Below are positions 1 through 15,134 of a stretch of DNA of 15,510 bases, one piece after another. The stretch's first letter is position 1. Every line of letters starts with the position of its first letter. Both the position numbers and the translations under genes were made by a program. This stretch comes from a virus (taxonomy: Duplodnaviria; Heunggongvirae; Uroviricota; Caudoviricetes): the IMG/VR virus record IMGVR_UViG_2585427727_000013; one strand, written 5' to 3'. The notes under the pieces are model-generated. The model saw only the letters and a program-made list of their open reading frames with translations, searched no databases and was not told where the DNA came from.

Positions 1-1089
1 AATGAGAAAATCAGCCAGCAGCGCCGGGATTTGTGGAAGGCGGAGAGTCAGTTCGCGGTACTGGAGGAGGCGGCGCAACGTCGCCAGCTGTCTGCACAGG
101 AGAAATCCCTGCTGGCGCATAAAGATGAGACGCTGGAGTACAAACGCCAGCTGGCTGCACTTGGCGACAAGGTTACGTATCAGGAGCGCCTGAACGCGCT
201 GGCGCAGCAGGCGGATAAATTCGCACAGCAGCAACGGGCAAAACGGGCCGCTATTGATGCGAAAAGCCGGGGGCTGACTGACCGGCAGGCAGAACGGGAA
301 GCCACGGAACAGCGCCTGAAGGAACAGTATGGCGATAATCCTCTGGCGCTGAATAACGTCATGTCAGAGCAGAAAAAGACCTGGGCGGCTGAAGACCTGC
401 TTCGCGGGAACTGGATGGCAGGCCTCAGGTCCGGCTGGAGCGAGTGGAAAGAGAGTGCCACGGACAGTATGTCGCAGGTTAAAAGTGCTGCCACGCAGAC
501 CTTTGATGGTATTGCACAGAATATGGCGGCGATGCTGACCGGCAGTGAACAGAACTGGCGCAGCTTCACCCGTTCCGTGCTGTCCATGATGACAGAAATG
601 CTGCTTAAGCAGGCAATGGTGGGGATTGTCGGGAGTATCGGCAGCGCCATTGGCGGGGCTGTTGGTGGCGGCGCATCCGCGTCAGGCGGTACAGCCATTC
701 AGGCCGCTGCGGCGAAATTCCATTTTGCAACCGGAGGATTTACGGGAACCGGCGGCAAATATGAGCCAGCGGGGATTGTTCACCGTGGTGAATTTGTCTT
801 CACGAAGGAGGCAACCAGCCGGATTGGCGTGGGGAATCTTTACCGGCTGATGCGCGGCTATGCCACCGGCGGTTATGTCGGTACACCGGGCAGCATGGCG
901 GACAGTCGGTCGCAGGCGTCCGGGACGTTTGAGCAGAATAACCATGTGGTGATTAACAACGACGGCACGAACGGGCAGATAGGTCCGCATGCTCTGAAGG
1001 CGGTGTATGACATGGCCCGCAAGGGTGCCCGTGATGTAATTCAGACACAGATGCGTGATGGTGGCCTGTTCTCCGGAGGTGGACGATGA
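1..1089 (+). CDS. H: Tail tape measure protein, C-terminal part (lambda gpH-like); 5' end truncated by the window
   Basis: Frame 1 is open from position 1 (the track's 31..1089 ORF merely starts at an in-frame TTG). Gly-rich C-terminus (GGAVGGGASASGG...GGLFSGGGR) and position immediately upstream of M/L fit lambda H. Stop TGA overlaps the M start (ATGA). Confidence 0.85.
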   Translation, partial: NEKISQQRRDLWKAESQFAVLEEAAQRRQLSAQEKSLLAHKDETLEYKRQLAALGDKVTYQERLNALAQQADKFAQQQRAKRAAIDAKSRGLTDRQAEREATEQRLKEQYGDNPLALNNVMSEQKKTWAAEDLLRGNWMAGLRSGWSEWKESATDSMSQVKSAATQTFDGIAQNMAAMLTGSEQNWRSFTRSVLSMMTEMLLKQAMVGIVGSIGSAIGGAVGGGASASGGTAIQAAAAKFHFATGGFTGTGGKYEPAGIVHRGEFVFTKEATSRIGVGNLYRLMRGYATGGYVGTPGSMADSRSQASGTFEQNNHVVINNDGTNGQIGPHALKAVYDMARKGARDVIQTQMRDGGLFSGGGR

Positions 1090-1415
1090 AGACCTTCCGC
1101 TGGAAAGTGAAACCCGGTATGGATGTGGCTTCGGTCCCTTCTGTAAGAAAGGTGCGCTTTGGTGATGGCTATTCTCAGCGAGCGCCTGCCGGGCTGAATG
1201 CCAACCTGAAAACGTACAGCGTGACGCTTTCTGTCCCCCGTGAGGAGGCCACGGTACTGGAGTCGTTTCTGGCTGAGCACGGGGGCTGGAAATCCTTTCT
1301 GTGGACGCCGCCTTATGAGTGGCGGCAGATAAAGGTGACCTGCGCAAAATGGTCGTCGCGGGTCAGTATGCTGCGTGTTGAGTTCAGCGCAGAGTTTGAA
1401 CAGGTGGTGAACTGA
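1086..1415 (+). CDS. M: Minor tail protein M (lambda gpM-like, 109 aa)
   Basis: 109-aa ORF whose sequence (MKTFRWKVKPGMDVASVPSVRKVRFGDGYSQRAP...) matches lambda gpM as recalled from memory. Translationally coupled to H (ATGA overlap) and to L. Confidence 0.93.
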   Translation: MKTFRWKVKPGMDVASVPSVRKVRFGDGYSQRAPAGLNANLKTYSVTLSVPREEATVLESFLAEHGGWKSFLWTPPYEWRQIKVTCAKWSSRVSMLRVEFSAEFEQVVN

Positions 1416-2113
1416 TGCAGGATATCCGGCAGGAAACACTGAATGAATGCACCCGTGCGGAGCAGTCGGCCAGCGTGGTGCTCTGGGAAATCGATCTGAC
1501 AGAGGTCGGTGGAGAACGTTATTTTTTCTGTAATGAGCAGAACGAAAAAGGTGAGCCGGTCACCTGGCAGGGGCGACAGTATCAGCCGTATCCCATTCAG
1601 GGGAGTGGTTTTGAACTGAATGGCAAAGGCACCAGTACGCGCCCCACGCTGACGGTTTCTAACCTGTACGGTATGGTCACCGGGATGGCGGAAGATCTGC
1701 AGAGTCTGGTCGGCGGAACGGTGGTCCGGCGTAAGGTTTACGCCCGTTTTCTGGATGCGGTGAACTTCGTCAACGGAAACAGAGACGCCGATCCGGAGCA
1801 GGAGGTGATCAGCCGCTGGCGCATTGAGCAGTGCAGCGAACTGAGCGCGGTGAGTGCCTCCTTTGTACTGTCCACGCCGACGGAAACGGATGGCGCTGTT
1901 TTTCCGGGACGTATCATGCTGGCCAACACCTGCACCTGGACCTATCGCGGCGATGAGTGCGGTTATAGCGGTCCGGCTGTCGCGGATGAATATGACCAGC
2001 CAACGTCCGATATCACGAAGGATAAATGCAGCAAATGCCTGAGCGGTTGTAAGTTCCGCAATAACGTCGGCAACTTTGGCGGCTTCCTTTCCATTAACAA
2101 ACTTTCGCAGTAA
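1415..2113 (+). CDS. L: Minor tail protein L (lambda gpL-like, 232 aa)
   Basis: 232 aa, same length as lambda gpL. Conserved Cys cluster near the C-terminus (CTWTYRGDECGYSGP...CSKCLSGC) typical of the gpL Fe-S site. Start overlaps the M stop. Confidence 0.93.
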   Translation: MQDIRQETLNECTRAEQSASVVLWEIDLTEVGGERYFFCNEQNEKGEPVTWQGRQYQPYPIQGSGFELNGKGTSTRPTLTVSNLYGMVTGMAEDLQSLVGGTVVRRKVYARFLDAVNFVNGNRDADPEQEVISRWRIEQCSELSAVSASFVLSTPTETDGAVFPGRIMLANTCTWTYRGDECGYSGPAVADEYDQPTSDITKDKCSKCLSGCKFRNNVGNFGGFLSINKLSQ

Positions 2114-2118
2114 ATCCC

Positions 2119-2862
2119 ATGACACAGACAGAATCAGCGATTCTGGCGCACGCCCGGCGATGTGCGCCAGCGGAGTCGTGCGGCTTCGTGGTAAGCACGC
2201 CGGAGGGGGAAAGATATTTCCCCTGCGTGAATATCTCCGGTGAGCCGGAGGATTATTTCCGGATGGCTCCGGAGGACTGGCTGCAGGCAGAAATGCAGGG
2301 TGAGATTGTGGCGCTGGTCCACAGCCACCCCGGTGGTCTGCCCTGGCTGAGTGAGGCTGACCGGCGGCTGCAGGTGCAGAGTGATTTGCCGTGGTGGCTG
2401 GTCTGCCGGGGTGAGATTCATAAGTTCCGCTGTGTGCCGCATCTCACCGGGCGGCGCTTTGAGCACGGGGTGACGGACTGTTACACGCTGTTCCGGGATG
2501 CTTATCATCTGGCGGGGATTGAGATGCCGGATTTTCATCGCGAGGATGACTGGTGGCGTCACGGTCAGAATCTCTATCTGGATAATCTGGAGGCCACAGG
2601 GCTGTATCAGGTGCCGTTGTCAGCGGCGCAGCCGGGCGATGTGCTGCTGTGCTGTTTTGGTTCATCTGTGCCGAATCATGCCGCCATTTACTGTGGTGAC
2701 GGCGAGCTGCTGCACCATATTCCTGAACAACTGAGCAAACGAGAGAGGTATACCGACAAATGGCAGCGACGCACACACTCCCTCTGGCGTCACCGGGCAT
2801 GGCACGCATCTGCCTTTACGGGGATTTACAACGATTTGGCCGCCGCATCGACCTTCGTGTGA
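2119..2862 (+). CDS. K: Tail tip assembly protein K (MPN/JAMM-like N-terminal part plus NlpC/P60-like C-terminal part)
   Basis: 247-aa ORF starting 5 nt after L. Contains a JAMM-type HSHPGG motif and an NlpC/P60-like Cys/His region (GVTDCYTLF...NHAAIYCGDGELLHH). The historical lambda K annotation of 199 aa would correspond to the internal ATG at 2263. The 3' end overlaps I by 103 nt in another frame, as in lambda. Confidence 0.88.
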   Translation: MTQTESAILAHARRCAPAESCGFVVSTPEGERYFPCVNISGEPEDYFRMAPEDWLQAEMQGEIVALVHSHPGGLPWLSEADRRLQVQSDLPWWLVCRGEIHKFRCVPHLTGRRFEHGVTDCYTLFRDAYHLAGIEMPDFHREDDWWRHGQNLYLDNLEATGLYQVPLSAAQPGDVLLCCFGSSVPNHAAIYCGDGELLHHIPEQLSKRERYTDKWQRRTHSLWRHRAWHASAFTGIYNDLAAASTFV

Positions 2863-3431
2863 AAACGGGGGCTGAAGCCATCCGGGCGCTGGCCACACAG
2901 CTCCCTTCGTTTCGTCAGAAACTGAGCGACGGCTGGTATCAGGTACGTATTGCCGGGCAAGATGTCAGCACGTCCGGATTAACGGCGCAGTTACATGAGG
3001 CTCTGCCTGACGGCGCTGTGATTCATATCGTTCCCAGAGTCGCCGGGGCCAAGTCAGGTGGCGTATTCCAGATTGTCCTGGGGGCAGCCGCCATTGCCGG
3101 ATCATTCTTTACTGCCGGAGCCACCCTTGCAGCATGGGGGGCAGCCATTGGGGCCGGTGGTATGACCGGCATTCTGTTTTCTCTCGGTGCCAGTATGGTG
3201 CTCGGCGGTGTGGCGCAGATGCTGGCACCGAAAGCCAGAACTCCCCGCACACAGACAACGGATAACGGTAAGCAGAACACCTATTTCTCCTCACTGGATA
3301 ACATGGTTGCCCAGGGCAATGTTTTGCCTGTTCTGTACGGTGAAATGCGTGTGGGGTCGCGGGTGGTTTCTCAGGAGATCAGCACGGCAGACGAAGGGGA
3401 CGGTGGTCAGGTTGTGGTGATTGGTCGCTGA
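2760..3431 (+). CDS. I: Tail tip assembly protein I (lambda gpI-like, 223 aa)
   Basis: 223 aa with N-terminus MAATHTLPLASPGMARICLYGDLQRF and Gly/Ala-rich hydrophobic middle, matching lambda gpI from memory. Overlaps the 3' end of K. Confidence 0.9.
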   Translation: MAATHTLPLASPGMARICLYGDLQRFGRRIDLRVKTGAEAIRALATQLPSFRQKLSDGWYQVRIAGQDVSTSGLTAQLHEALPDGAVIHIVPRVAGAKSGGVFQIVLGAAAIAGSFFTAGATLAAWGAAIGAGGMTGILFSLGASMVLGGVAQMLAPKARTPRTQTTDNGKQNTYFSSLDNMVAQGNVLPVLYGEMRVGSRVVSQEISTADEGDGGQVVVIGR

Positions 3432-3450
3432 TGCAAAATGTTTTATGTGA

Positions 3451-3473
3451 AACCGCCTGCGGGCGGTTTTGTC
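3451..3473 (+). terminator. GC-rich hairpin plus T-run between I and J; possible attenuator or weak intrinsic terminator
   Basis: aaccgcc-tgcg-ggcggtt followed by tttt, seen directly in the I-J gap. Confidence 0.4.
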
Positions 3474-3491
3474 ATTTATGGAGCGTGAGGA

Positions 3492-6400
3492 ATGGGTAAA
3501 GGAAGCAGTAAGGGGCATACCCCGCGCGAAGCGAAGGACAACCTGAAGTCCACGCAGTTGCTGAGTGTGATCGATGCCATCAGCGAAGGGCCGGTTGAAG
3601 GTCCGGTGGATGGATTAAAAAGCGTGCTGCTGAACAGTACGCCGGTGCTGGACACTGAGGGGAATACCAACATCTCCGGTGTCACGGTGGTGTTCCGTGC
3701 CGGTGAGCAGGAGCAGACACCGCCGGAGGGGTTTGAATCCTCCGGCTCCGAGACGGTGCTGGGTACGGAAGTGAAATATGACACGCCGATCACCCGCACC
3801 ATTACGTCTGCAAACATCGACCGTCTGCGCTTTACCTTCGGTGTACAGGCACTGGTGGAAACCACCTCAAAGGGTGACAGGAATCCGTCGGAAGTCCGTC
3901 TGCTGGTTCAGATACAACGTAACGGTGGCTGGGTGACGGAAAAAGACATCACCATTAAGGGCAAAACCACCTCGCAGTATCTGGCCTCGGTGGTGGTGGG
4001 TAGCCTGCCGCCGCGCCCGTTTAATATCCGGATGCGCAGGATGACGCCGGACAGCACCACAGACCAGCTGCAGAACAAAACGCTCTGGTCGTCATACACC
4101 GAAATCATCGATGTGAAACAGGGCTACCCGAACACGGCACTGGTCGGCGTGCAGGTGGATTCGGAGCAGTTCGGCAGCCAGCAGGTGAGCCGTAATTATC
4201 ATCTGCGCGGGCGCATTCTGCAGGTGCCGTCGAACTATAACCCGCAGACGCGGCAATACAGCGGTATCTGGGACGGAACGTTTAAACCGGCATACAGCAA
4301 CAACATGGCCTGGTGTCTGTGGGATATGCTGACCCATCCGCGCTACGGCATGGGGAAACGTCTTGGTGCGGCGGATGTGGACAAATGGGCGCTGTATGTC
4401 ATCGGCCAGTATTGCGATCAGTCAGTGCCGGATGGCTTTGGTGGCACGGAGCCGCGCATCACCTGTAATGCCTGGCTGACCACACAGCGTAAGGCGTGGG
4501 ATGTTCTCAGTGATTTCTGCTCGGCGATGCGCTGTATGCCGGTATGGAACGGGCAGACGCTGACGTTCGTGCAGGACCGGCCGTCGGATAAGGTGTGGAC
4601 CTATAACCGCAGTAATGTGGTGATGCCGGATGATGGCGCGCCGTTCCGCTACAGTTTCAGCGCCCTGAAGGACCGCCATAATGCCGTTGAGGTGAACTGG
4701 ACTGACCCGGATAACGGCTGGGAAACGGCAACAGAGCTTGTGGAGGACACGCAGGCCATTGCCCGTTATGGTCGTAATGTCACGAAGATGGATGCCTTTG
4801 GCTGTACCAGCCGGGGGCAGGCACACCGCGCCGGGCTGTGGCTGATTAAAACGGAGCTGCTGGAAACGCAGACCGTGGACTTCAGCGTGGGCGCAGAAGG
4901 GCTTCGCCATGTACCGGGCGATGTTATTGAAATCTGTGATGATGACTATGCCGGTATCAGCACCGGTGGTCGTGTGCTGGCGGTGAGCAGCCAGACCCGG
5001 ACGCTGACGCTCGACCGTGAAATCACGCTGCCATCCTCTGGCACCACGCTGATAAGCCTGGTTGACGGAAGTGGCAATCCGGTCAGCGTGCAGGTCCAGT
5101 CCGTCACCGACGGCGTGAAGGTGAAAGTGAGCCGGGTTCCTGACGGCGTTGCAGAATACAGCGTGTGGGGGCTGAAGTTGCCGACGTTGCGCCAGCGCCT
5201 GTTCCGCTGTGTGAGTATCCGTGAGAACGACGACGGCACGTATGCCATCACCGCCGTGCAGCATGTACCGGAAAAAGAAGCCATCGTGGATAACGGGGCG
5301 CACTTTGACGGCGACCAGAGTGGCACGGTGAATGGTGTCACGCCGCCAGCGGTGCAGCACCTGGCCGCAGAAGTCACTGCAGACAGCGGGGAATATCAGG
5401 TGCTGGCGCGATGGGACACACCGAAGGTGGTGAAGGGCGTGAGCTTCCTGCTCCGTCTGACCGTAACAGCGGACGACGGCAGTGAGCTGCTGGTCAGCAC
5501 GGCCCGGACGACGGAAACCACATACCGCTTCAGGCAACTGGCGCTGGGGCGTTACACGCTGACGGTCCGGGCGGTAAATGCGTGGGGGCAGCAGGGCGAT
5601 CCGGCATCGGTATCGTTCCGGATTGCGGCACCGGCAGCGCCTGTCACTATTGAACTGATACCAGGGTATTTTCAGATAACAGCGGTCCCGAAACTGGCTG
5701 TATATGACCCGACGGTGCAGTTTGAGTTCTGGTTCTCGGAAAAGCGGATTATCGATATCAGGCAGGTTGAAACCAGCGCGCGTTATCTTGGTACGGCGCT
5801 GTACTGGATAGCCGCCAGTAGCAATATTAAGCCGGGTTATGATTATTACTTTTATATCCGCAGCGTGAACACCGTTGGTAAATCGGCATTTGTGGAGGCC
5901 GTTGGTCGGGCGAGCGATGATGCGGAAGGTTATCTGAATTTTTATAAAGGGTTGATCAATAAAACGCATCTCGGCAAGGAACTGCTGGAAAACTTTGAGC
6001 TGACGGAAGATAACGCCAGCAAACTGGAGGAGTTTTCGAAAGAGTGGAAGGACGCCAACGATAAATGGAATGCCATGTGGGGCGTCAAAATTGAGCAGAC
6101 CAAAGACGGCAAACATTATGTCGCGGGGCTTGGCCTCAGCATGGAGGATACGGAGGAAGGCAAACTGAGCCAGTTCCTGGTTGCCGCTAACCGTATCGCG
6201 TTTATTGACCCGGCAAACGGGAATGAAACGCCGATGTTTGTGGCGCAGGGCAACCAGATATTCATGAACGACGTGTTCCTGAAGCGCCTGACGGCCCCCA
6301 CCATTACCAGCGGCGGTAATCCTCCGGCATTTTCCCTGACACCGGACGGGCGGCTGACGGCGAAAAATGCCGATATCAGCGGTAACGTGAATGCGAACTC

Positions 6401-6887
6401 CGGGACGCTCAACAACGTCACGATTAACGAGAACTGCCGGGTTCTGGGAAAACTGTCCGCGAACCAGATTGAAGGCGATCTCGTTAAAACAGTGGGCAAA
6501 GCTTTCCCCCGTGACTCCCGGGCACCGGAGCGGTGGCCATCAGGGACCATTACCGTCAGGGTTTATGACGATCAGCCGTTTGACCGGCAAATTGTTATTC
6601 CGGCTGTGGCATTCAGTGGCGCTAAGCATGAGAGAGAGCATACTGATATTTACTCCTCATGCCGTCTGATAGTGCGGAAAAACGGTGCTGAAATTTATAA
6701 CCGTACCGCGCTGGATAATACGCTGATTTACAGTGGCGTTATTGATATGCCTGCCGGTCACGGTCACATGACACTGGAGTTTTCGGTGTCAGCATGGCTG
6801 GTAAATGGCTGGTATCCCACAGCAAGTATCAGCGATTTGCTGGTTGTTGTGATGAAGAAAGCCACTGCAGGCATCACGATTAGCTGA
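3492..6887 (+). CDS. J: Tail tip central fibre / host specificity protein J (lambda gpJ-like, 1131 aa)
   Basis: 1131-aa ORF (lambda J is 1132 aa) in the conserved position after I. Good SD (tgaggaatg). N-terminus [34 protein letters not shown] is lambda-J-like. Confidence 0.95.
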
Positions 6888-6905
6888 ATTTTATAACCCA
6901 GATAC

Positions 6906-6932
6906 GGGCACCAGAAATGGTGCCTTTTTTAT
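6906..6932 (+). terminator. Rho-independent terminator after J
   Basis: Perfect hairpin ggcacca-gaaa-tggtgcc followed by tttttt. Confidence 0.7.
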
Positions 6933-6954
6933 TGCAGAAAAGCGAGAGGTAATT

Positions 6955-7554
6955 ATGCGTAAATTATGTGCTGTTATTCTGTCCGCAGTAGTCTGGCTGG
7001 TTGCCGCTGGTACGCCAGCGAGCGCAGCAGAGCATCAGTCCACACTAAGCGCCGGGTATCTTCAGACTCATACTGATATGCCAGGCAGTGATGACCTGAA
7101 GGGCATTAACGTGAAATACCGTTATGAATTTACGGACACGCTGGGGCTGGTGACGTCATTCAGTTATGCCAATGCCAAAGATGAGCAAAAAACGCATTAC
7201 AGCGATACCCGCTGGCATGAAGATTCAGTGCGTAACCGCTGGTTCAGCATGATGGCGGGGCCATCTGTACGCGTGAATGAATGGTTCAGTGCTTATGCGA
7301 TGGCAGGTGTGGCTTACAGCCGTGTTTCGACGTTCTCCGGGGATTATCTCCGCGTAACTGACAACAAGGGGAAAACGCACGATGTGCTGACCGGAAGTGA
7401 TGACGATCGCCACAGCAACACGTCTCTGGCGTGGGGAGCTGGCGTGCAGTTTAACCCGACCGAATCCGTGGCCATTGATATTGCTTATGAAGGCTCCGGC
7501 AGTGGCGACTGGCGCACTGACGGTTTCATCGTGGGTGTCGGTTATAAGTTCTGA
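6955..7554 (+). CDS. lom: Lom-like outer-membrane beta-barrel protein (Ail/Lom/PagC family)
   Basis: 199 aa with signal peptide (MRKLCAVILSAVVWLVAAGTPASAAEH), alternating amphipathic beta-strand pattern and C-terminal GVGYKF. Lambda moron position between J and stf, bracketed by terminators. Confidence 0.9.
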   Translation: MRKLCAVILSAVVWLVAAGTPASAAEHQSTLSAGYLQTHTDMPGSDDLKGINVKYRYEFTDTLGLVTSFSYANAKDEQKTHYSDTRWHEDSVRNRWFSMMAGPSVRVNEWFSAYAMAGVAYSRVSTFSGDYLRVTDNKGKTHDVLTGSDDDRHSNTSLAWGAGVQFNPTESVAIDIAYEGSGSGDWRTDGFIVGVGYKF

Positions 7555-7618: not shown

Positions 7619-9997
7619 ATGGCAGCAGTAAAAATCTCAGGTGTGCTGAAAGATGGTGCGGGAAAACCAATACAGAACTGCACTATTCAACTGAAGGCAA
7701 AGCGTAACAGCACCACGGTACTGGTGAACACGGTGGCCTCTGAAAATCCGGATGAAGCCGGGCGTTACAGCATGGACGTTGAGTATGGTCAGTACAGCGT
7801 CATCCTGTGGATTGAGGGTTCTCAGCCATCACATGTTGGGACCATTACCGTCTATGAAGGTTCCAGTCCGGGGACGCTGAATGATTTTCTCGGTGCCATG
7901 ACGGAAGATGATGTCATGCCGGAGGCATTGCGCCGTTTTCAGGCAATGGTGGAAGAAGCGGCACGCAACGCCGAAGCCGCCTCTCAGAGCGCAGCGGCGG
8001 CAAAGAAATCCGAAACTGCAGCGGCATCATCGAAGAACGCGGCGAAAACCTCAGAAACGAATGCAGCTAATAGTGCACAGGCGGCAGCGACCTCAAAGAC
8101 TGCATCGGCAAACTCCGCGACAGCAGCCAAAAAATCAGAAACCAACGCGAAAAATAGCGAGACAGCCGCAAAGACGAGCGAAACCAACGCAAAGTCCAGC
8201 CAGACGGCAGCGAAAACCAGCGAAACGAATACCAAAGCCAGTGAAACTGCGGCGAAAAACAGCCAGGATGCAGCGGCCCAAAGCGAGAGTGCCGCAGCTG
8301 GTTCTGCAAGTGCGGCGGCTTCTTCTGCCACTGCATCAGCCAACAGTCAAAAAGCTGCAAAAACCAGCGAAACTAACGCAAAGTCCAGCCAGACGGCAGC
8401 GAAGACCAGCGAAACGAATGCCAAAGCCAGCGAAACTGCGGCGAAAAACAGTCAGGATGCAGCAGCCCAAAGCGAGAGTGCTGCAGCTGGTTCTGCAAGC
8501 GCGGCGGCTGCTTCTGCCACTGCATCAGCCAACAGTCAAAAAGCAGCAAAAACCAGTGAAACCAATGCAAAGACAAGCGAGACTGCAGCGGCGAACTCGG
8601 CGAAAGCATCGGCAGCAAGCCAGACAGCAGCTAAAGCAAGTGAAGACGCAGCCAGAGAGTATGCAAGTCAGGCAGCAGAGCCGTATAAATATGTCTTACA
8701 GCCACTGCCTGATGTGTGGATACCATTTAACGATTCACTGGATATGATTACGGGCTTTTCGCCATCTTATAAAAAGATTGTTATTGGTGACGACGAAATA
8801 ACGATGCCTGGTGACAAGGTGGTTAAGTTTAAACGCGCATCAAAAGCAACTTACATTAATAAATCTGGTGTGCTGACAGAGGCTACCATTGACGAGCCAC
8901 GATTTGAACGTGATGGCCTGCTTATTGAGGGGCAAAGAACGAACTTCTTCCCGAACAGTACAGACCCTTCGAAGTGGAATAAGTCAACTTCACTGGACGT
9001 TACAGAAACAGGCACAGATAGTTTCGGTTTTAATTATGGCCGGTTTGTCGTACAGGATTCGATTGTTGGTACAAGTAAAGCGCATACCATTATCGGACTG
9101 TATTCGAGTACCGGAGGGGTTGATACTTCAGGGGACGAAAAGTATGTAACTATATCCTGTCGGGTAAAAAGTGAAGTTGATAATATCGACGTTCGTATTT
9201 TATTTGAACATTATGATGGGGAGGTAAGGACATCAATAGGAACAGCAAGCCTGAACCTTACCACCCGCATAATTAGCAAGACAGGTCAGACAAGCCGTGT
9301 TACAGCAAGGTCTGTTAAGGATGATGCAACTGGCTGGATATTTTTTGAGGCTACATTAAAAGCAGATACAACAGAAAATACGGTTGGTGGTTTCGTCCAG
9401 TATTCTCCGGATACAGGTCAGATGGTGGCATCAGGGGATTGTCTCGATGTAACCACTCCCCAGATTGAGGCTGGTACAGGCGCATCATCTTTTATTGTTA
9501 CGGGGGCTGCACCGGTAACGCGGGCAAGCGATATAGTTACAGTCCCAATTAAGAATAATCTTTATAATCTACCTTTTACGGTTCTTTGTGAGGTACATAA
9601 GAACTGGTATAAAACGCCAAATGCAGCACCGCGTGTTTTTGATACCGGCGGTCATCAAACCGGAGCGGCTATTATTCTTGGCTTCGGTTCTTCAGCAGAT
9701 TACGACGGATTTCCTTATTGCGATATTGGTGGGGCTAACAGGCGGATAAACGAAAATGCATCGCTTGAAAAAATGGTTATGGGGATGCGTGTAAAGTCAG
9801 ATCAGTCTACATGCGCAGTAAGTAACGGGCGTATATCCAGCGAAACAAAAACCACATGGTCCTGTATTCAGAACTCCGCAATTATCCGTATTGGAGGCCA
9901 GACTACAGCCGGTTTACGCCATTTATTTGGTCATGTCAGGAATTTCAGAATATGGCACAAGGCATTGACTGATGCTCAGGTGGGGGAGTTAATCTAA
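7619..9997 (+). CDS. stf: Side tail fibre protein, mosaic: lambda-Stf-like N-terminus, Ala/Ser/Thr/Lys-rich repeat shaft, and a non-lambda AT-rich C-terminal module ending in a LamG/concanavalin-like motif
   Basis: The track ORF starts at GTG 7613, but the ATG at 7619 has an SD (ggag, 5-nt spacer) and gives MAAVKISGVLKDG..., matching the lambda Stf N-terminus. Shaft carries SETNAK-type short repeats and a 63-aa tandem duplication. C-terminus ...RIGGQTTAGLRHLFGHVRNFRIWHKALTDAQVGELI resembles the end of LamG-type domains. Confidence 0.85.
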   Translation: MAAVKISGVLKDGAGKPIQNCTIQLKAKRNSTTVLVNTVASENPDEAGRYSMDVEYGQYSVILWIEGSQPSHVGTITVYEGSSPGTLNDFLGAMTEDDVMPEALRRFQAMVEEAARNAEAASQSAAAAKKSETAAASSKNAAKTSETNAANSAQAAATSKTASANSATAAKKSETNAKNSETAAKTSETNAKSSQTAAKTSETNTKASETAAKNSQDAAAQSESAAAGSASAAASSATASANSQKAAKTSETNAKSSQTAAKTSETNAKASETAAKNSQDAAAQSESAAAGSASAAAASATASANSQKAAKTSETNAKTSETAAANSAKASAASQTAAKASEDAAREYASQAAEPYKYVLQPLPDVWIPFNDSLDMITGFSPSYKKIVIGDDEITMPGDKVVKFKRASKATYINKSGVLTEATIDEPRFERDGLLIEGQRTNFFPNSTDPSKWNKSTSLDVTETGTDSFGFNYGRFVVQDSIVGTSKAHTIIGLYSSTGGVDTSGDEKYVTISCRVKSEVDNIDVRILFEHYDGEVRTSIGTASLNLTTRIISKTGQTSRVTARSVKDDATGWIFFEATLKADTTENTVGGFVQYSPDTGQMVASGDCLDVTTPQIEAGTGASSFIVTGAAPVTRASDIVTVPIKNNLYNLPFTVLCEVHKNWYKTPNAAPRVFDTGGHQTGAAIILGFGSSADYDGFPYCDIGGANRRINENASLEKMVMGMRVKSDQSTCAVSNGRISSETKTTWSCIQNSAIIRIGGQTTAGLRHLFGHVRNFRIWHKALTDAQVGELI
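8189..8566 (+). repeat. In-frame tandem duplication inside stf: 2 x 189 bp (63 aa), near-identical
   Basis: Unit starting gcaaagtccagccagacggcagcg occurs at 8189 and again at 8378 with only a few substitutions. It explains the spurious Arg/Lys/Gln-rich ORFs in other frames. Confidence 0.9.
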
Positions 9998-10278
9998 TGA
10001 AAGATTTAACACTCAAATTTGTCGACAGGGCCGACTTTTCGGCCTTTATGGAGAGCATTGGCTATTATGATGACGAGTCGATGCAGGATGATATTCTTAT
10101 TGACGTGATAGGTAATGTGTACAAAGAAACCGGAGAACTTACTGAAGATGGCGAGCCGGTATGTGTTAAGGAGGACGGATATTTTGTAAGCGTGCGCATC
10201 ATTAATGATGCAAAAAAATCGTCAATATTCGATAAATACGCGATTGTTGTTGAGCATCAACTTCGTGGCTGGATGTGA
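9997..10278 (+). CDS. Hypothetical acidic 93-aa protein, translationally coupled to stf
   Basis: Start ATG overlaps the stf stop (TAATG). AT-rich. No motif I can recognise. Confidence 0.5.
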   Translation: MKDLTLKFVDRADFSAFMESIGYYDDESMQDDILIDVIGNVYKETGELTEDGEPVCVKEDGYFVSVRIINDAKKSSIFDKYAIVVEHQLRGWM

Positions 10279-10287
10279 GGGAGACAA

Positions 10288-10992
10288 ATGGCTACATCGA
10301 CAGTAATTCCTGATGACATCAAAACGCTAAAGGGAGATGTCAGTAAAGCCAAGGAAGATATTTCCTCAATTAACGGAAAAGTATCAACGCTTCAGACTGA
10401 TATGACCAGTGCAAAGCAGGATATCAGCTCCAGATACACAAAAACTGAAGTTGATAATAAGCTGAAAAACAAACTGGAAGTGAACGCTCTGGAAAGCGGT
10501 CGTTATGGTGGAGATTTTTACCCGCTGACTGGCCGTGAAGCGTTTTATTTGTGGGGATTGGGCACGACTACAGCGGCGGCAAACCTTTATCTTAATCCTG
10601 ACTCCGCAATTTCGTCTGTACTGCGGTCAACATCGTCTATCCGCTATAAAGATTCAGTAGAGACAATAGATTCAGAGCACGCCGATCTCATTTTCAGGAT
10701 GCGCCCTGTGTGGTACAGGTCGCAATGCGAAAATGACAGGCGTGACTGGGGATTCTACGGATTGATTGCCGAGGAAGTAGGAGAAATTGCCCCTCAGTTT
10801 GTACACTGGCGACCAGCTAACGAGAATGATGCTCCTGAAGCTATTTCCAGCAATGGCCTTGTTGCCGAAGGTGTAATGTACGAACGTCTGGTTGTTCCAC
10901 TGATTCACCATATCCAGAAACTGACTGAAAGAGTTGATGAACTTGAGTCAGAATTAAAGCTGTTATCAACTTCCCGAAGCGATATCGGATAA
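10288..10992 (+). CDS. Short fibre-like protein with a C-terminal peptidase-S74 intramolecular chaperone domain (234 aa)
   Basis: SD gagggag upstream. N-terminal heptad-like repeats (DIKTLKGDVSKAKEDISSINGKVSTLQTDMTSAKQDISS). C-terminal half matches the S74 pattern as I recall it: S-S-I-R-Y-K at the expected autocleavage site, then RPVWYR, GLIAEEVGEIAPQFV, and a terminal coiled coil (IQKLTERVDELESELKLL). Confidence 0.6.
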   Translation: MATSTVIPDDIKTLKGDVSKAKEDISSINGKVSTLQTDMTSAKQDISSRYTKTEVDNKLKNKLEVNALESGRYGGDFYPLTGREAFYLWGLGTTTAAANLYLNPDSAISSVLRSTSSIRYKDSVETIDSEHADLIFRMRPVWYRSQCENDRRDWGFYGLIAEEVGEIAPQFVHWRPANENDAPEAISSNGLVAEGVMYERLVVPLIHHIQKLTERVDELESELKLLSTSRSDIG

Positions 10993-11002
10993 AGGAGGAG
11001 TA

Positions 11003-11296
11003 ATGGATATAAGCCCCTTACTTCATGCACTTTGTGCTGTGGCTGCGCAGACACTGGTTGGTCTTTTTACCGGAAACTGGGCTTACGGAGCGATAGCCGG
11101 TTGTGCGTTCTTCATTGCGCGTGAACACACCCAGGCAGAATATCGCTGGATTGAAATGTTCGGGCATGGCAAGCGAATGAATATGCCGTGGTGGGGCGGT
11201 TTTGATCCGCGCGCGTGGGATGTGGCAAGCCTGATGGATTTTGCTGTGCCGGTGGTGGCGTGTCTGCTGGTCTGGCTGTTGGTTAATCGTGGGTGA
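11003..11296 (+). CDS. Hypothetical small membrane protein (97 aa, hydrophobic N- and C-terminal segments)
   Basis: Strong SD (aggagg). Hydrophobic stretches LLHALCAVAAQTLVGLFTGNWAYGAIAGCAFFIA and FAVPVVACLLVWLLV. Third gene of the compact cassette after stf. Confidence 0.5.
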   Translation: MDISPLLHALCAVAAQTLVGLFTGNWAYGAIAGCAFFIAREHTQAEYRWIEMFGHGKRMNMPWWGGFDPRAWDVASLMDFAVPVVACLLVWLLVNRG

Positions 11297-11306
11297 AAAA
11301 AGGTGA

Positions 11307-11435
11307 GCTGTATATGCAACGGAGGAAGAAACCTCGTTGCGGGAAGCCTGGAAGAAGTATCGGGTGTTGCTGAACCGTGTTGATACATCAACTGCACCTG
11401 ATATTGAGCGGCCTGTGAACCCTGTCAGGGAGTAA
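11307..11435 (+). pseudogene. tfa: 3' remnant of a tail fibre assembly gene (tfa): last ~40 codons only, no start
   Basis: Frame translates ...[39 protein letters not shown], matching the lambda Tfa C-terminus (...[24 protein letters not shown]...) from memory. An in-frame stop lies immediately upstream at 11304-11306. Confidence 0.6.
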
Positions 11436-11486
11436 TCATTGGGATTATGCCGCAGCACGTCTTAAGCAAGAACGTGCTGCGGTTGG
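11316..11486 (+). repeat. Direct repeat copy 1 (~170 bp): tfa 3' end plus downstream hairpin
   Basis: About 90% identical to 12365-12536 by eye. Confidence 0.85.
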
Positions 11487-11498
11487 ATGCTATTTTTT
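11450..11498 (+). terminator. Perfect 11-bp-stem hairpin with downstream T-run after the tfa remnant; possible terminator for the stf operon
   Basis: ccgcagcacgt-cttaagcaaga-acgtgctgcgg (11450-11482), then tttttt at 11493-11498. A degenerate copy lies inside repeat 2 near 12507-12536. Confidence 0.45.
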
Positions 11499-12158
11499 CC
11501 CTGAAGCGGAAAACATTACTACAGTACCTTGAACCTTGGTTTTAACATTCTCGAAATGCTCTGAGAGTATATGTGTTAAGCCTTCTTCGGAATCTTTTGT
11601 GTTTGAAAAGATGCCTTTCTGATTGTAAATGCGCATCAGTTTTTGACCGAAGCTATTGTGCACAACTCCATCGCCAAGAATTGTGGCTCCGTATAGAGTT
11701 CCATCGTCAGTTAAGGCCTGCGCCGCATTGCGTATTACACAGCTTTTTGTAGATATATTTCCAGGCAGGCAGTGAAGAAGGTAAAACATGGAAATGGAAT
11801 CAAATTGACCATGTAACGTCGCGGGATAAGGTTCAAAAACATCATGGCTAATTTTATGTTTAATTTTTGATTCCCCAGCCCTTGTAGATGCCGCGTTCAG
11901 GCTAGCTTCGTTCAAATCCATTAAAGATATCAGACTACTCTCAGGTACGTGAGTAAGGTAAAACCCAGTTCCAACACCAATATCCAGATGGTTGTTACCT
12001 AAATGTTCCAGAAAGTGTGGAAGAAGGTGTTCCTTTGTAGGACATCCCCATGCAAGCCGATTTGATACTCCCAAAACCCACCAGTCATAAAGCTTTAGGG
12101 TAAGTGGTGTGTAAATTTTAGCCCCATCATCTGTGTTTTTTTTCATTAATTTCACCAT
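11490..12158 (-). CDS. Class I SAM-dependent methyltransferase (moron), substrate unknown
   Basis: 222-aa ORF on the minus strand with SAM-binding motif I (LDIGVGTGFY) and an acidic post-motif region. Low GC relative to tail genes. An SD-supported alternative start is the fifth codon (ATG at 12146). Confidence 0.7.
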   Translation of the reverse strand: MVKLMKKNTDDGAKIYTPLTLKLYDWWVLGVSNRLAWGCPTKEHLLPHFLEHLGNNHLDIGVGTGFYLTHVPESSLISLMDLNEASLNAASTRAGESKIKHKISHDVFEPYPATLHGQFDSISMFYLLHCLPGNISTKSCVIRNAAQALTDDGTLYGATILGDGVVHNSFGQKLMRIYNQKGIFSNTKDSEEGLTHILSEHFENVKTKVQGTVVMFSASGKK

Positions 12159-12214
12159 GTTATAGTTTTATTTGTGAATTAAATCAATTACGGCGATGAA
12201 TTACAAGGGGTTAA

Positions 12215-12484
12215 ATGCTGCCGCAGCATAGCGATATTGAAATAGCCTGGTATGCTTCGATACAGCAGGAGCCGAATGGCTGGAAGACCGTCACCACACA
12301 GTTCTACATCCAGGAATTCAGTGAGCATATTGTGCCACTTCAGGATGCTGTAGATCTGGAGATCGCAACGGAGGAAGAAAACTCGTTGCTGGAAGCCTAG
12401 AGGAAGTATCGGGTGTTGCTGAACCGTGTTGATACATCAACTGCACCTGATATTGAGTGGCCTGCAAATCCTGTCAGGGAGTAA
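12215..12484 (+). pseudogene. tfa: 5'-truncated tfa fragment with an in-frame TAG (TGG to TAG) at 12398-12400
   Basis: Track ORF 12215..12400 ends ...SEHIVPLQDAVDLEIATEEENSLLEA*. The same frame continues [27 protein letters not shown] to 12484, matching the lambda Tfa C-terminus with W replaced by a stop. No Tfa N-terminal region is present. Confidence 0.65.
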
Positions 12485-12536
12485 TCATTGGGATTATGCC
12501 GCAGACACGTCGTATGCAGGAACGTGCTGCGGTTAG
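12365..12536 (+). repeat. Direct repeat copy 2 (~170 bp): tfa 3' end plus downstream imperfect hairpin
   Basis: Aligns with 11316-11486 base for base with scattered substitutions. Confidence 0.85.
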
Positions 12537-12600
12537 TTTGTGAGCTTTCGATAGTGCGAGTATTGAATGATTTCCAGCCGTTACCGATTTTACGTGCTAA

Positions 12601-12849
12601 TTAGTGAACAAACCACTCGTCAGCAGACTCCCAGGTATCTTTCAGAGTTTCCTGAACAAAAGTTTTAGCTGAATCTTTATCGGCGGTGCGCGTAACAGAA
12701 AGGCCATCGTTGCTGGTGGCTTTTACGATCACCTCTACATCGTCATAACGTTTACTGATGCGTCGGGTTAATTCTTCCTTTAACGCATCCACAGCACCGG
12801 TTGGCATTTTAGTCATTTTTTCTTTGGCTATGCAGATTTCAATACGCAT
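12601..12849 (-). CDS. dinI: DinI-like DNA-damage-inducible protein (82 aa)
   Basis: [11 protein letters not shown]...[11 protein letters not shown] has the DinI-family pattern (MRIE..IAK...GA.DAL..EL.RRI...TWESAD.WFV) as I recall it for E. coli DinI. SD agaggga. Two LexA boxes immediately upstream. Confidence 0.8.
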
Positions 12850-12862
12850 AAAAGTCCCTCTA

Positions 12863-12910
12863 TACTGTGTTTGTATACAGTGTTATTTTTAACTGTATGG
12901 ATAAACAGTG
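12863..12910. promoter_or_regulatory. Two tandem LexA (SOS) boxes in the dinI promoter region
   Basis: Box 1 at 12863-12882: taCTGTgtttgtatACAGtg. Box 2 at 12891-12910: aaCTGTatggataaACAGtg. Both fit CTGT-N8-ACAG. They lie 14-61 bp upstream of the dinI start codon and directly abut the integrase stop. Confidence 0.7.
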
Positions 12911-14008
12911 TCAAGAGGTCTTATTTCTGCTCTTTTGGAGCTCTTCAAAACGATTATGTAAAGATTTCGGATACAGTTCGGTATATACCTGCCATAGCAC
13001 GTTTAATGAACGATGTCCTGTAACTTGGGCGACTTCCTCAATACTAAAACCAGCCTCAAATAAGCGACTTGCCCCTTCTCTACGCAAATCATGGTATCGC
13101 AGATCTTTAATACCTAATTTGCTTCTTACCCTCTGAAATCCCGCAGTAACAGAAGTGCTGTTATATGGAAAAATGAATTCCGATTTTTGGGGCTGTCGTT
13201 GGACGATATCCCAGGCTTCCCCAAGCAAGGCTACTTTCATGTGGTTGCCTTCCTTTTTGCGTGGATCTTTCCTGTCTCTTACGAGTATAGATTTTTGTTC
13301 CTGGTCGAGATCTTCCCATCGTAACCGGCATACTTCTCCGATTCGCATACAGGACCACACAGAAAATTTGAGGATATCAACGAACGGAATTTTTGAGCAT
13401 TTATGAGTAGATCGTTGTTGAAGGCCTTCAATGAGCATGTCCAGTTCATCAGATGCTGGTCTACGATTACGACGGTTTGATTTACCAATCAAACCAAGTT
13501 TAAGTAGATATGGACGAGCGCTTTTCGCCGGGTTTGATGTGTAATTAATTCCGTATACAGGTTTAGCCGCATCCAGAACACTGCCAAGATAACTAACATC
13601 GTGGCTGACTGTTGCTGGACCTGCACCAGCGTTGTTTCTTAGCCTACAATGTTCAATTACGTCATTTTCTGTCAGTTCGGATAGTTTGATCGCGGAGATG
13701 TCACTATCCATAAGCAGTTCCAGCACATATCTTTTAGTACGACCTGCTTTACCTCCGGCATTTGAGTCATTTAAATATTTGTGTAGTAAGTCACGGACTG
13801 TAAGTCCGTCAACTGCATTTGATGATGGAATGCCATATAGATCTAATTCCATTACTTTCTGTGTACCCCATGTTTTGGCATGGGCATGTTTAGGGAATGT
13901 TTTGCTTTCCCTGTAAGTGATAACACCTTTTTCTTTGATAATCACATTACAGCGATAGCGTGGTGTGCCATCGGATTTTAGTCGTTTCTCTATGTTATAG
14001 TACGCCAT
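12911..14008 (-). CDS. int: Tyrosine-type site-specific integrase (dusA-associated integrase type)
   Basis: 365 aa with a C-terminal catalytic region carrying an HxxR box (RYHDLRREGASRLF) and ...VTGHRSLNVLWQVYTELY with the candidate nucleophile Tyr. 5' end is 88 bp from the dusA start, divergently oriented. Confidence 0.9.
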   Translation of the reverse strand: MAYYNIEKRLKSDGTPRYRCNVIIKEKGVITYRESKTFPKHAHAKTWGTQKVMELDLYGIPSSNAVDGLTVRDLLHKYLNDSNAGGKAGRTKRYVLELLMDSDISAIKLSELTENDVIEHCRLRNNAGAGPATVSHDVSYLGSVLDAAKPVYGINYTSNPAKSARPYLLKLGLIGKSNRRNRRPASDELDMLIEGLQQRSTHKCSKIPFVDILKFSVWSCMRIGEVCRLRWEDLDQEQKSILVRDRKDPRKKEGNHMKVALLGEAWDIVQRQPQKSEFIFPYNSTSVTAGFQRVRSKLGIKDLRYHDLRREGASRLFEAGFSIEEVAQVTGHRSLNVLWQVYTELYPKSLHNRFEELQKSRNKTS

Positions 14009-14096: not shown

Positions 14097-15134
14097 ATGC
14101 ACGATAATCCTGAAACACAGAAAACTAATCAAACCAGCGTGATGCCTGAGAAAACTGACGCTTACGGGAGCTCTCGGTTTAGCATTGCTCCTATGCTCGA
14201 CTGGACGGACAGACATTGCCGCTATTTCTTGCGTCTGCTTTCCCGCAATACGTTGCTGTATACCGAAATGGTGACCACAGGGGCGATTATTCACGGTAAA
14301 GGTGATTATCTGGCGTACAGTGAAGAAGAACATCCGGTAGCGTTGCAACTCGGCGGTAGCGATCCGGCGGCGCTGGCGCAGTGTGCGAAGCTGGCAGAAG
14401 CGCGCGGATATGATGAGATCAACCTGAATGTCGGCTGCCCGTCTGACCGGGTGCAGAACGGCATGTTTGGGGCGTGTCTGATGGGTAATGCGCAGCTGGT
14501 TGCCGACTGCGTGAAAGCGATGCGCGATGTGGTGTCGATTCCGGTGACGGTGAAAACGCGTATTGGAATCGATGACCAGGACAGCTATGAATTTCTCTGC
14601 GATTTCATCAACACCGTTTCCGGCAAAGGCGAGTGTGAGATGTTCATCATCCACGCACGTAAAGCCTGGCTTTCTGGGTTAAGCCCGAAAGAAAACCGTG
14701 AAATCCCGCCGCTCGATTATCCGCGTGTGTATCAACTGAAGCGTGACTTTCCGCATCTGACGATGTCGATTAACGGTGGCATCAAGTCGCTGGAAGAGGC
14801 TAAAGCGCATTTGCAACATATGGATGGCGTGATGGTCGGGCGCGAAGCGTATCAGAATCCAGGCATTCTGGCGGCGGTAGACCGAGAGATCTTTGGTTCT
14901 TCGGATACCGATGCCGATCCGGTGGCGGTGGTGCGTGCCATGTATCCGTACATTGAGCGTGAACTCAGCCAGGGGACGTATCTCGGCCATATTACCCGGC
15001 ATATGCTGGGCTTGTTCCAGGGTATTCCTGGCGCGCGGCAGTGGCGGCGTTATTTAAGTGAAAATGCCCATAAAGCGGGTGCTGACATTAACGTGCTGGA
15101 ACACGCGCTCAAACTGGTGGCAGATAAGCGTTAA
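14097..15134 (+). CDS. dusA: tRNA-dihydrouridine synthase A
   Basis: 345-aa Dus-family protein with the catalytic-Cys motif ([21 protein letters not shown]). Followed by pspG, as in the E. coli chromosome. Confidence 0.9.

Follow-up and report, generated by a model that had tools for sequence, protein, structure and literature searches.

Direct repeats of tail-fibre-assembly gene ends as probable recombination scars around a common methyltransferase cassette of Escherichia coli prophages

The virus record IMGVR_UViG_2585427727_000013 contains a stretch of 15,510 nucleotides (nt), here called the window, whose positions are used throughout. To judge from its sequence, it is the right end of a lambdoid Escherichia coli prophage integrated at dusA, and positions 10900-12950 are 100% identical to the E. 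coli record NZ_CP159170.1. Here two direct repeats, both derived from the 3' end of the tail-fibre-assembly gene tfa, enclose a methyltransferase gene of the ybcY type on the reverse strand. We consider it very likely that these repeats are the non-functional 3' ends of two different tfa alleles, left as recombination scars around a cassette that is common in E. coli prophages. By gene order and alignment the locus is already known, as tfaD-ybcY-tfaX of prophage DLP12 in E. coli K-12.

The repeat itself is clear. Pairwise alignment of 11316-11484 with 12365-12534, together with a repeat search, gave one block of 140 nt (11316-11455 and 12365-12504; 8 mismatches, 94% identity) and one of 29 nt (11456-11484 and 12506-12534; 3 mismatches, 90%), in direct orientation and 1049-1050 nt apart, with a single 1-nt indel between the two blocks. 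The longest perfect blocks measure 55 and 35 nt; in 20 shuffled windows, the longest exact repeat was 12-15 nt, compared to the 55 nt observed. A first-pass annotation had described direct repeats of about 170 bp, both of them tfa 3' ends, with copy 1 a stub of some 40 codons, a TGG to TAG nonsense change in copy 2 and a reverse-strand methyltransferase between them, and in all these respects it was correct. Its description of copy 2 as a 5'-truncated tfa fragment stood for the 3' part of the ORF (open reading frame) in question, but the 5' part belongs to an unrelated gene and has an ATG of its own at 12215.

Homology to Tfa was found in both copies. With lambda Tfa (from NC_001416) as the tblastn query, residues 156-194 matched 11316-11432 in copy 1 (R1; E = 4e-16), and residues 132-194 matched 12293-12481 in copy 2 (R2; E = 8e-26). 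Beyond these two copies, the same search found no Tfa match and no full-length tfa in the window. The family PF02413 (Caudo_TAP) recognised the copy-1 peptide with E = 9.4e-14, and copy 2 with E = 1.7e-06 up to its stop codon and E = 3.9e-25 (profile positions 75-130) with the Trp codon restored. The fragments align with the last 39 and the last 55-63 residues of lambda Tfa at 76-85% identity, but they differ from it in having no N-terminal fibre-binding domain, in being incomplete as ORFs and in following no fibre gene that would need Tfa. Neither copy is a complete Tfa ORF (about 175-195 residues) with the variable N-terminal fibre-binding domain. According to the part of PMC9608196 that cites North et al. 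2019, the conserved C-terminal helical domain of Tfa trimerises and the variable N-terminal domain binds the fibre. This conservation of the trimerisation domain fits with its DNA being the shared recombination handle.

Copy 2 sits within an ORF of 89 codons, tfaX (12215-12484). Its Tfa homology begins near 12320, about 45 nt upstream of the shared repeat, and a Pfam search of its first 35 codons gave no Tfa homology. TfaX residues 3-37 instead match positions 2-36 of PHROG 3893, a family often met in this region of lambdoid phages (HK225_029, beside dinI, is one example). The fusion joint was placed by a three-way comparison of the window, an 80-residue ORF of Citrobacter freundii (orf80) and the tfa genes of PhiR26_1, K-12 and lambda. 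At the C. freundii locus ybcY is 90% identical to that of the window in protein and 91.6% in DNA; blastn homology to the window spans 11478-12301 only, and tfa homology begins at 12308-12319. The complete 80-residue gene divergent from ybcY at this locus is a full-length member of PHROG 3893 (E = 7.6e-38), which shares residues 1-37 with TfaX (76% amino-acid identity) and then diverges. By this comparison, TfaX is an in-frame chimera of PHROG 3893 codons 1-35 and tfa codons ~141-194. In phage Ayreon a tfa stub and the R1 hairpin lead into the last 36 nt of ybcY, after which come the spacer and an unfused PHROG 3893 5' part; a second tfa copy (R2) is absent.

These comparison loci showed further peculiarities. 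In Ayreon, nearly all of ybcY and its promoter, equivalent to window positions 11526-12184, are deleted (2239-2640 of that locus), and the unfused PHROG 3893 remnant runs past codon 35 and contains a stop codon. At the C. freundii locus (2700-4000), ybcY lies between the full-length PHROG 3893 gene and a dinI-like gene, which is co-oriented with ybcY, and a CdiI-type immunity gene is nearby, unlike any E. coli context seen. Phage vB_EcoS-716R3 (94-3569) carries a PHROG 3893 homologue in a cargo region, where it adjoins an invertase fragment and a gene whose annotation is retron-type reverse transcriptase.

The stop codon of copy 2 replaces a Trp codon of intact homologues. The Prokaryotic Genome Annotation Pipeline (PGAP) calls copy 2 in the identical record a 'tail fiber assembly protein' pseudogene with an 'internal stop'. 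Copy 1 retains CCTGG at 11347-11351, where copy 2 reads CCTAG. In tfaX of K-12 (6876-7061 of its locus) and of PhiR68_2 the same Trp codon reads TGA, and CCTAG also stands in the R1 stub of a prophage at the trpA site (~3128-3140). CCWGG is the Dcm methylation site, at which deamination of 5-methylcytosine on the complementary strand yields a G-to-A change, and such sites are reportedly a classical amber hotspot. On this established mechanism, the amber codon of the window would have arisen at a Dcm-site hotspot.

Copy 1 has a different origin. Its frame opens at 11307, directly after a TGA at 11304-11306, and PGAP calls it, in the identical record, a 'tail fiber assembly protein' pseudogene with 'missing N-terminus'. 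The sequence to the left of ~11305 belongs to another fibre module. The junction between the last ORF of this module (97 residues) and the stub is shared by the window and PhiR49_1, which both have the cassette, and five sampled loci that lack the cassette (PhiR49_2 and strains 3059, UPEC 26-1, DETEC-P829 and ZH063) have an identical junction. The truncation of copy 1 is therefore an event separate from the arrival of the cassette. In phage PhiR55_1 this fibre module occurs without any tfa sequence. From this absence, and from the chaperone domain that the 234-residue protein of the module carries itself, we infer that the fibre of this module can do without Tfa and that the stub was left behind when one module replaced another.

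The replacing module seems to comprise the side tail fibre gene stf, a 93-residue ORF, the 234-residue protein and the 97-residue ORF, in place of stf-tfa. In a prophage at the smpB site, the tail genes gpU-gpX-gpD stand in place of the tfa body (~3010-3270 of that locus), and the gpD ORF appears to run into a tfa remnant of ~260 bp, a further independent junction within tfa. We rejected the possibility that this remnant starts at the exact base of R2, as at a fixed boundary or through a site-specific event, because the alignment extends further upstream.

Both repeat copies end in the stem-loop that follows tfa. The R1 hairpin stretch (11430-11505, 76 nt) has a minimum free energy (MFE) of -28.6 kcal/mol on the + strand, and the reverse complement of 11425-11500 one of -25.1; by their folds, the hairpins of both copies may act as terminators. 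The R1 hairpin matches those of DLP12 tfaD and of sites without the cassette (empty sites), and is 96-100% identical in five other contexts. The extra base and the loop variants of the R2 hairpin are those of the post-tfa hairpin of lambda and of R2 at three other loci (L008, L011 and L020). Because the hairpins represent different tfa alleles, the repeat looks like the product of an illegitimate crossover between phages rather than a decayed duplication, and much of the 7% divergence between the copies (DLP12-type R1 against lambda-type R2) would be allelic and not due to decay. At the left joint, the native post-hairpin flank of empty sites reads ggttggatgGTGAAC, and the native 3' flank after the ybcY stop at Citrobacter and Salmonella loci reads TAGCATCCA.

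We compared the window with the corresponding K-12 locus, tfaD (b0561)-ybcY (b0562, a pseudogene)-tfaX (b0563), which has the same gene order and orientation. The two are 96.7% identical over 11316-12461, with the same joints and the same chimeric tfaX (R1 hairpin 98%, ybcY 99.1%, spacer 96.4%, tfaX 5' part 99.0%). They differ in that K-12 has kept most of tfaD, compared to the 39-42-codon stub of the window, while its ybcY is disrupted and that of the window is intact. In addition, tfaX of K-12 is stopped by TGA rather than TAG, and its 3' end is replaced by another right flank (the appY-ompT side), whereas the right flank of the window is dinI-int at dusA.

The cassette is widespread. Counted at >=95% identity, its core (11436-12330) occurred in 3798 of the 5426 complete E. 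coli genomes searched, with as many as 4 locations in a single genome and ~4958 copies in all; 14 phage records had it too. Metagenome-assembled genomes under the names Bacillus sp., Planococcaceae and Segatella copri also include short contigs with E. coli ybcY cassette sequence of 97-100% identity, which probably reflects binning contamination. Our literature search found no paper joining tail fiber assembly, moron, methyltransferase and lambdoid, and found ybcY and tfaX only in promoter catalogues or lists.

Comparison with five contexts (a P2-like prophage near smpB, an invertible-fibre prophage near trpA, PhiR26_1, PhiR49_1 and K-12 DLP12) revealed a mosaic. Identity to the window was 96-100% for the R1 hairpin (11436-11486), 99.1-99.9% for ybcY, 96-98% for the spacer and 93-100% for the tfaX 5' part (to 12319), compared to 82-95% for R1 coding sequence and 71-90% for R2 coding sequence. 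Outside the P2-like prophage, the core as a whole was put at 98-100% identity, and the arms range over 71-95%. As the core is more conserved than the arms, the arms are likely to be homologous-recombination joints. The right-hand breakpoints vary, lying near 12439 in the DLP12 type and near 12556 in the trpA type, while the P2-like type shows none up to and including dinI; the cassette of PhiR68_2 and Turner lacks R1 coding sequence and begins at the hairpin. This pattern is what would be expected for a recently spread core that was repeatedly re-joined to resident tfa alleles in their conserved 3' ends.

Fibre and tfa modules are reportedly exchanged among lambda, P2, Mu, P1 and T-even phages. 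As in that exchange, the tfa 3' end is shared here at the DNA level between siphovirus-type and myovirus-type prophages and marks the joints, but what moves is a cargo cassette downstream of tfa and not a set of host-range determinants. An invertible fibre-switching cassette of the Gin/Pin/Cin type was rejected, as the repeats are direct and there is no invertase among the ORFs of the window around the locus; invertible-fibre systems do adjoin the same cassette in other phages.

The gene between the repeats is a class I methyltransferase dependent on S-adenosylmethionine (SAM). Its product scored above the gathering thresholds of PF08242 (Methyltransf_12; 37.6 bits, threshold 30), PF13489 (27.8, 27) and PF13649 (27.6, 27), and PHROG 2132 covers its residues 5-222 at profile positions 1-218 of 218. 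The real start is probably the ATG at 12146, four codons later than annotated, which would give a protein of 218 residues, since the predicted -10 hexamer abuts the annotated ATG and both PHROG 2132 and 218-residue homologues begin at residue 5. In a PDB search the nearest entries were UbiG and a juvenile-hormone acid methyltransferase, at E ~1e-3 only. No substrate class or named subfamily for YbcY emerged from NCBIfam (far below cutoff), PADLOC, the PDB or the names of 120 homologues, which are generic. Homologues of 55-90% identity are widespread in Enterobacterales as free-standing genes with generic names and no tfa nearby; the Enterobacter homologues (61-64% amino-acid identity), considered as possibly tfa-associated, adjoin a peptidase M3 gene instead.

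This gene has the properties of a moron. Morons are said to be extra transcription units between conserved phage genes. As expected for one, ybcY has a lower GC content (0.407) than R1 (0.517), R2 (0.498) and the 97-residue ORF (0.544), and is a single gene oriented against the late operon, with a candidate promoter and an adjoining hairpin. It is also present or absent between the same neighbours: the site is filled in the window, PhiR49_1 and 2G7b, and empty in PhiR49_2 and the four strains named above with the cassette-free junction. It differs from a typical moron in that its cassette includes a fragment of a second gene and a second copy of the 3' end of the neighbouring gene, and in being bracketed by homology rather than cleanly inserted. 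The promoter hexamers were read directly from the divergent spacer; a consensus promoter and terminator scan of 10900-13000 detected a promoter for neither ybcY nor tfaX and called the R2 hairpin only in part. The hairpin that adjoins the ybcY 3' end is not followed by a U-tract on the ybcY strand. In K-12, the same hexamers are listed for the ybcY-tfaX spacer, which bound RpoD holoenzyme and H-NS in genomic systematic evolution of ligands by exponential enrichment (SELEX; PMC3946193).

Taken together, these data suggest a history in five steps, of which the first two are drawn from extant intermediates and the other three were read directly from the comparisons. Initially, ybcY and the divergent PHROG 3893 gene would have been joined to the foot of a tfa terminator hairpin through the 6-bp microhomology TGGATG. 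An illegitimate crossover with another phage would then have fused PHROG 3893 codon ~35 to codon ~141 of a lambda-type tfa, and this one event would have produced both the chimeric ORF tfaX and the direct repeat. Homologous recombination in the strongly conserved tfa 3' ends would next have carried the fused cassette between prophages of the lambdoid, P2-like and invertible-fibre kinds. In the dusA prophage lineage, a self-chaperoned fibre module would have replaced the upstream tfa body, leaving the stub of 39-42 codons, and tfaX would have gained its amber codon at the Dcm methylation site. Today, ybcY is the sole intact gene and would be an independently transcribed moron with a predicted promoter, and the repeats would do no more than offer homology for exchange with other phages and, rarely, for deletion.

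Several observations weigh against this history. The order of its first two steps rests on few genomes (Ayreon and Citrobacter), which are possibly secondary derivatives; the sample of single-copy loci described below is small (5 loci); and the promoter and terminator activities are deduced from sequence and from in vitro binding in K-12, a different strain. Moreover, tfaX is intact, with 89 codons, in several unrelated contexts (loci L007-L014, L020 and L022-L024), TfaX has its own PHROG (2341; 88-89 residues), so that the chimera might have a function, and the ratio of non-synonymous to synonymous changes (pN/pS) is ~0.25 in the tfa part of tfaX, which may reflect selection on tfaX itself.

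A broader interpretation is that the conserved tfa 3' end and its hairpin form a universal homology dock, which moves ybcY and perhaps other cargo between unrelated tailed prophages (siphovirus-type, P2-like and invertible-fibre types), with ybcY under selection and TfaX possibly functional. We regard this as unlikely. If it were true, positive selection on methyltransferase function would account both for how little ybcY varies between these backgrounds and for its occurrence in ~70% of E. coli genomes.

Quite improbable, in our view, is a functional TfaX, with the Tfa trimerisation domain alone on a new N-terminus, acting as a mini-chaperone or decoy in a two-gene module with ybcY, in which case the repeat would be a by-product of paralogy and the allele of the window recently inactivated. 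Such a module would suit the presence of intact ORFs in E. albertii and in lambdoid, P2-like and invertible-fibre contexts, the in-frame fusion, a pN/pS of 0.25-0.28, the binding of RNA polymerase to the K-12 divergent spacer (PMC3946193) and the PHROG of its own. However, among the ~13 loci found through ybcY, and not through an intact tfaX, only ~4 have tfaX intact. The remainder have lesions of four independent kinds, which differ by lineage (TAG, TGA, a 7-bp deletion and a replaced 3' end); tfaX is broken in PhiR68_2, PhiR26_1 and Turner and deleted in strain A33. Four kinds of lesion across lineages indicate that tfaX is dispensable, and its product has no fibre-binding domain. We did not accept pN/pS as proof of function, because the value of 0.25 in the tfa part is inseparable from recombination with functional tfa alleles, which could import this signal. 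The N-terminal part, with 7 differences only (2 synonymous and 5 non-synonymous; pN/pS 0.57), is uninformative, having too few changes to show constraint.

The first-pass annotation had suggested a duplication or an insertion within an ancestral tfa, followed by decay. In its full form, this would mean that this genome had one ancestral tfa, which either was duplicated or was interrupted by the methyltransferase, both halves then decaying in place. The two copies are indeed direct tfa 3' ends around a foreign gene of lower GC content, and both are disabled here. Nevertheless, we judge this origin to be highly improbable. In PhiR26_1, in E. albertii and in a prophage with P2-like baseplate and fibre genes, the cassette comes directly after a full-length tfa and its hairpin, and thus lies downstream of tfa and not within it. 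Further evidence against a split gene is that the stub junction occurs independently of the cassette, that the 5' end joined to copy 2 comes from an unrelated gene and that the two hairpins are distinct alleles. Finally, the arrangement is common to thousands of genomes at 96-99% identity, and therefore was not formed in this one.

It had also been proposed that RecA-dependent deletion between the repeats could remove the moron. As a working switch, with RecA or Red crossovers frequent enough to make populations heterogeneous, this is very improbable, although the direct orientation, the spacing of 1049 nt and the perfect blocks of 55 and 35 nt make it mechanistically possible, and filled (37 genomes) and single-copy (~90 genomes) forms coexist in the same module context. 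We found no footprint of it. The cassette is retained in each of the 8 genomes with essentially the same sequence as the window at 10900-12950 (<=1 mismatch by bit score). A search with a synthetic junction of R1 and the right flank found the ~90 single-copy genomes, of which the closest were only 96-97% identical, so that no recent deletion derivative came to light. The five single-copy loci sampled all have one haplotype, in which an R1-type hairpin continues to its last base and is followed by the right flank, whereas crossovers in the long identical blocks would leave an R2-type hairpin; none of the five has copy-2 markers. They look like sites that were never filled. In addition, a mismatch of 7% should depress recombination.

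That the region is an RNA gene, with copy 2 encoding the small RNA (sRNA) IS009 (Rfam RF02111) and the hairpins as sRNA terminators, is almost certainly wrong: cmscan placed IS009 at 12238-12441 with 120.4 bits (gathering threshold 117) and, below threshold, on copy 1 (11294-11392, 68.4 bits), and the Shigella sRNA model CssrB has a 3' hairpin identical to that of R1 (a partial, sub-threshold match at 11419-11481), but the IS009 consensus reads as tfa codons and matches mostly in unpaired columns, so that conservation of tfa coding sequence explains the match.

The features of this prophage end are listed in Table 1. PGAP names the product of the side tail fibre gene 'prophage tail fiber N-terminal domain-containing protein', and the 234-residue protein aligns with the C-terminal ends of tail-fibre PHROGs. 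The product of the 97-residue ORF is hydrophobic-looking. The dinI-like gene is 93% identical at locus L008 and accompanies the cassette in the P2-like prophage. The gap between the integrase gene and the start of dusA is 88 nt.

Table 1. Positions of the features in and around the cassette (aa, amino acids; strand as + or -, with a point where none applies)
Feature	Position	Strand	Remarks
J	3492-6887	+	
lom	6955-7554	+	
Side tail fibre gene (Stf), 794 aa	7613..9997	+	PF08400 phage_tail_N, E 9e-64; PHROG 1419, full length
93-aa ORF	9997-10278	+	PHROG 1361
234-aa tail-fibre protein	10288..10992	+	C-terminal Peptidase_S74 intramolecular-chaperone domain, PF13884, E 5.2e-06, 27.1 bits (cutoff 22)
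97-aa ORF	11003..11296	+	PHROG 1443 (unknown function), E 4e-57; last gene of the replacement fibre module
Repeat copy 1 (R1) coding, tfa 3' stub	11307..11435	+	42 in-frame codons and TAA (11433-11435), no start codon
R1 hairpin	11449..11483	.	35-nt tfa terminator-type stem-loop, DLP12 allele; between convergent tfa stub and ybcY
Left cassette joint	11484..11489	.	6-bp microhomology TGGATG, common to the post-hairpin flank and the ybcY 3' flank
ybcY-type class I SAM-dependent methyltransferase	11490..12158	-	222-codon ORF; only intact gene of the cassette
Predicted sigma-70 promoter of ybcY	12159..12187	-	TTGATT-17-TATAAC, in the 56-nt divergent spacer 12159-12214; direct reading
tfaX 5' part	12215..12319	+	35 codons from the 5' end of a small phage gene, PHROG 3893
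Right (fusion) joint	12316..12320	.	PHROG 3893 codon ~35 joined to tfa codon ~141
tfaX 3' part	12320..12484	+	tfa fragment, about lambda Tfa residues ~141-194; R2 proper 12365-12484
Amber codon, TGG to TAG	12398..12400	+	CCTGG to CCTAG at 12396-12400, Dcm site
R2 hairpin	12498..12532	.	Lambda-type allele of the tfa terminator stem-loop; in the 82-nt stretch 12479-12560, MFE -26.7 kcal/mol
dinI-like gene	12601..12849	-	PF06183, E 1.1e-19; right neighbour of the cassette
Tyrosine integrase, prophage end	12911..14008	-	PF00589; PGAP of NZ_CP159170.1
dusA	14097-15134		PGAP of NZ_CP159170.1

The feature is thus unremarkable, a mosaic scar that was annotated before and belongs to a prophage cassette of very wide occurrence. 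The new points are small: tfaX arose as a chimera, the joints are two and show microhomology, and the amber codon lies at a Dcm site. It provides a worked example, resolved to a few bases, of how one illegitimate crossover between phages may create both a chimeric ORF and a direct repeat, and of how the most conserved DNA of the tail-fibre region may serve as a recombination handle that takes a cargo gene into unrelated types of prophage. It also calls for caution, in that matches to Rfam IS009 and annotations as 'tail fiber assembly protein' at loci of this kind stem from relic coding sequence and not from functioning genes. The question of real interest is what the widespread YbcY methyltransferase does.

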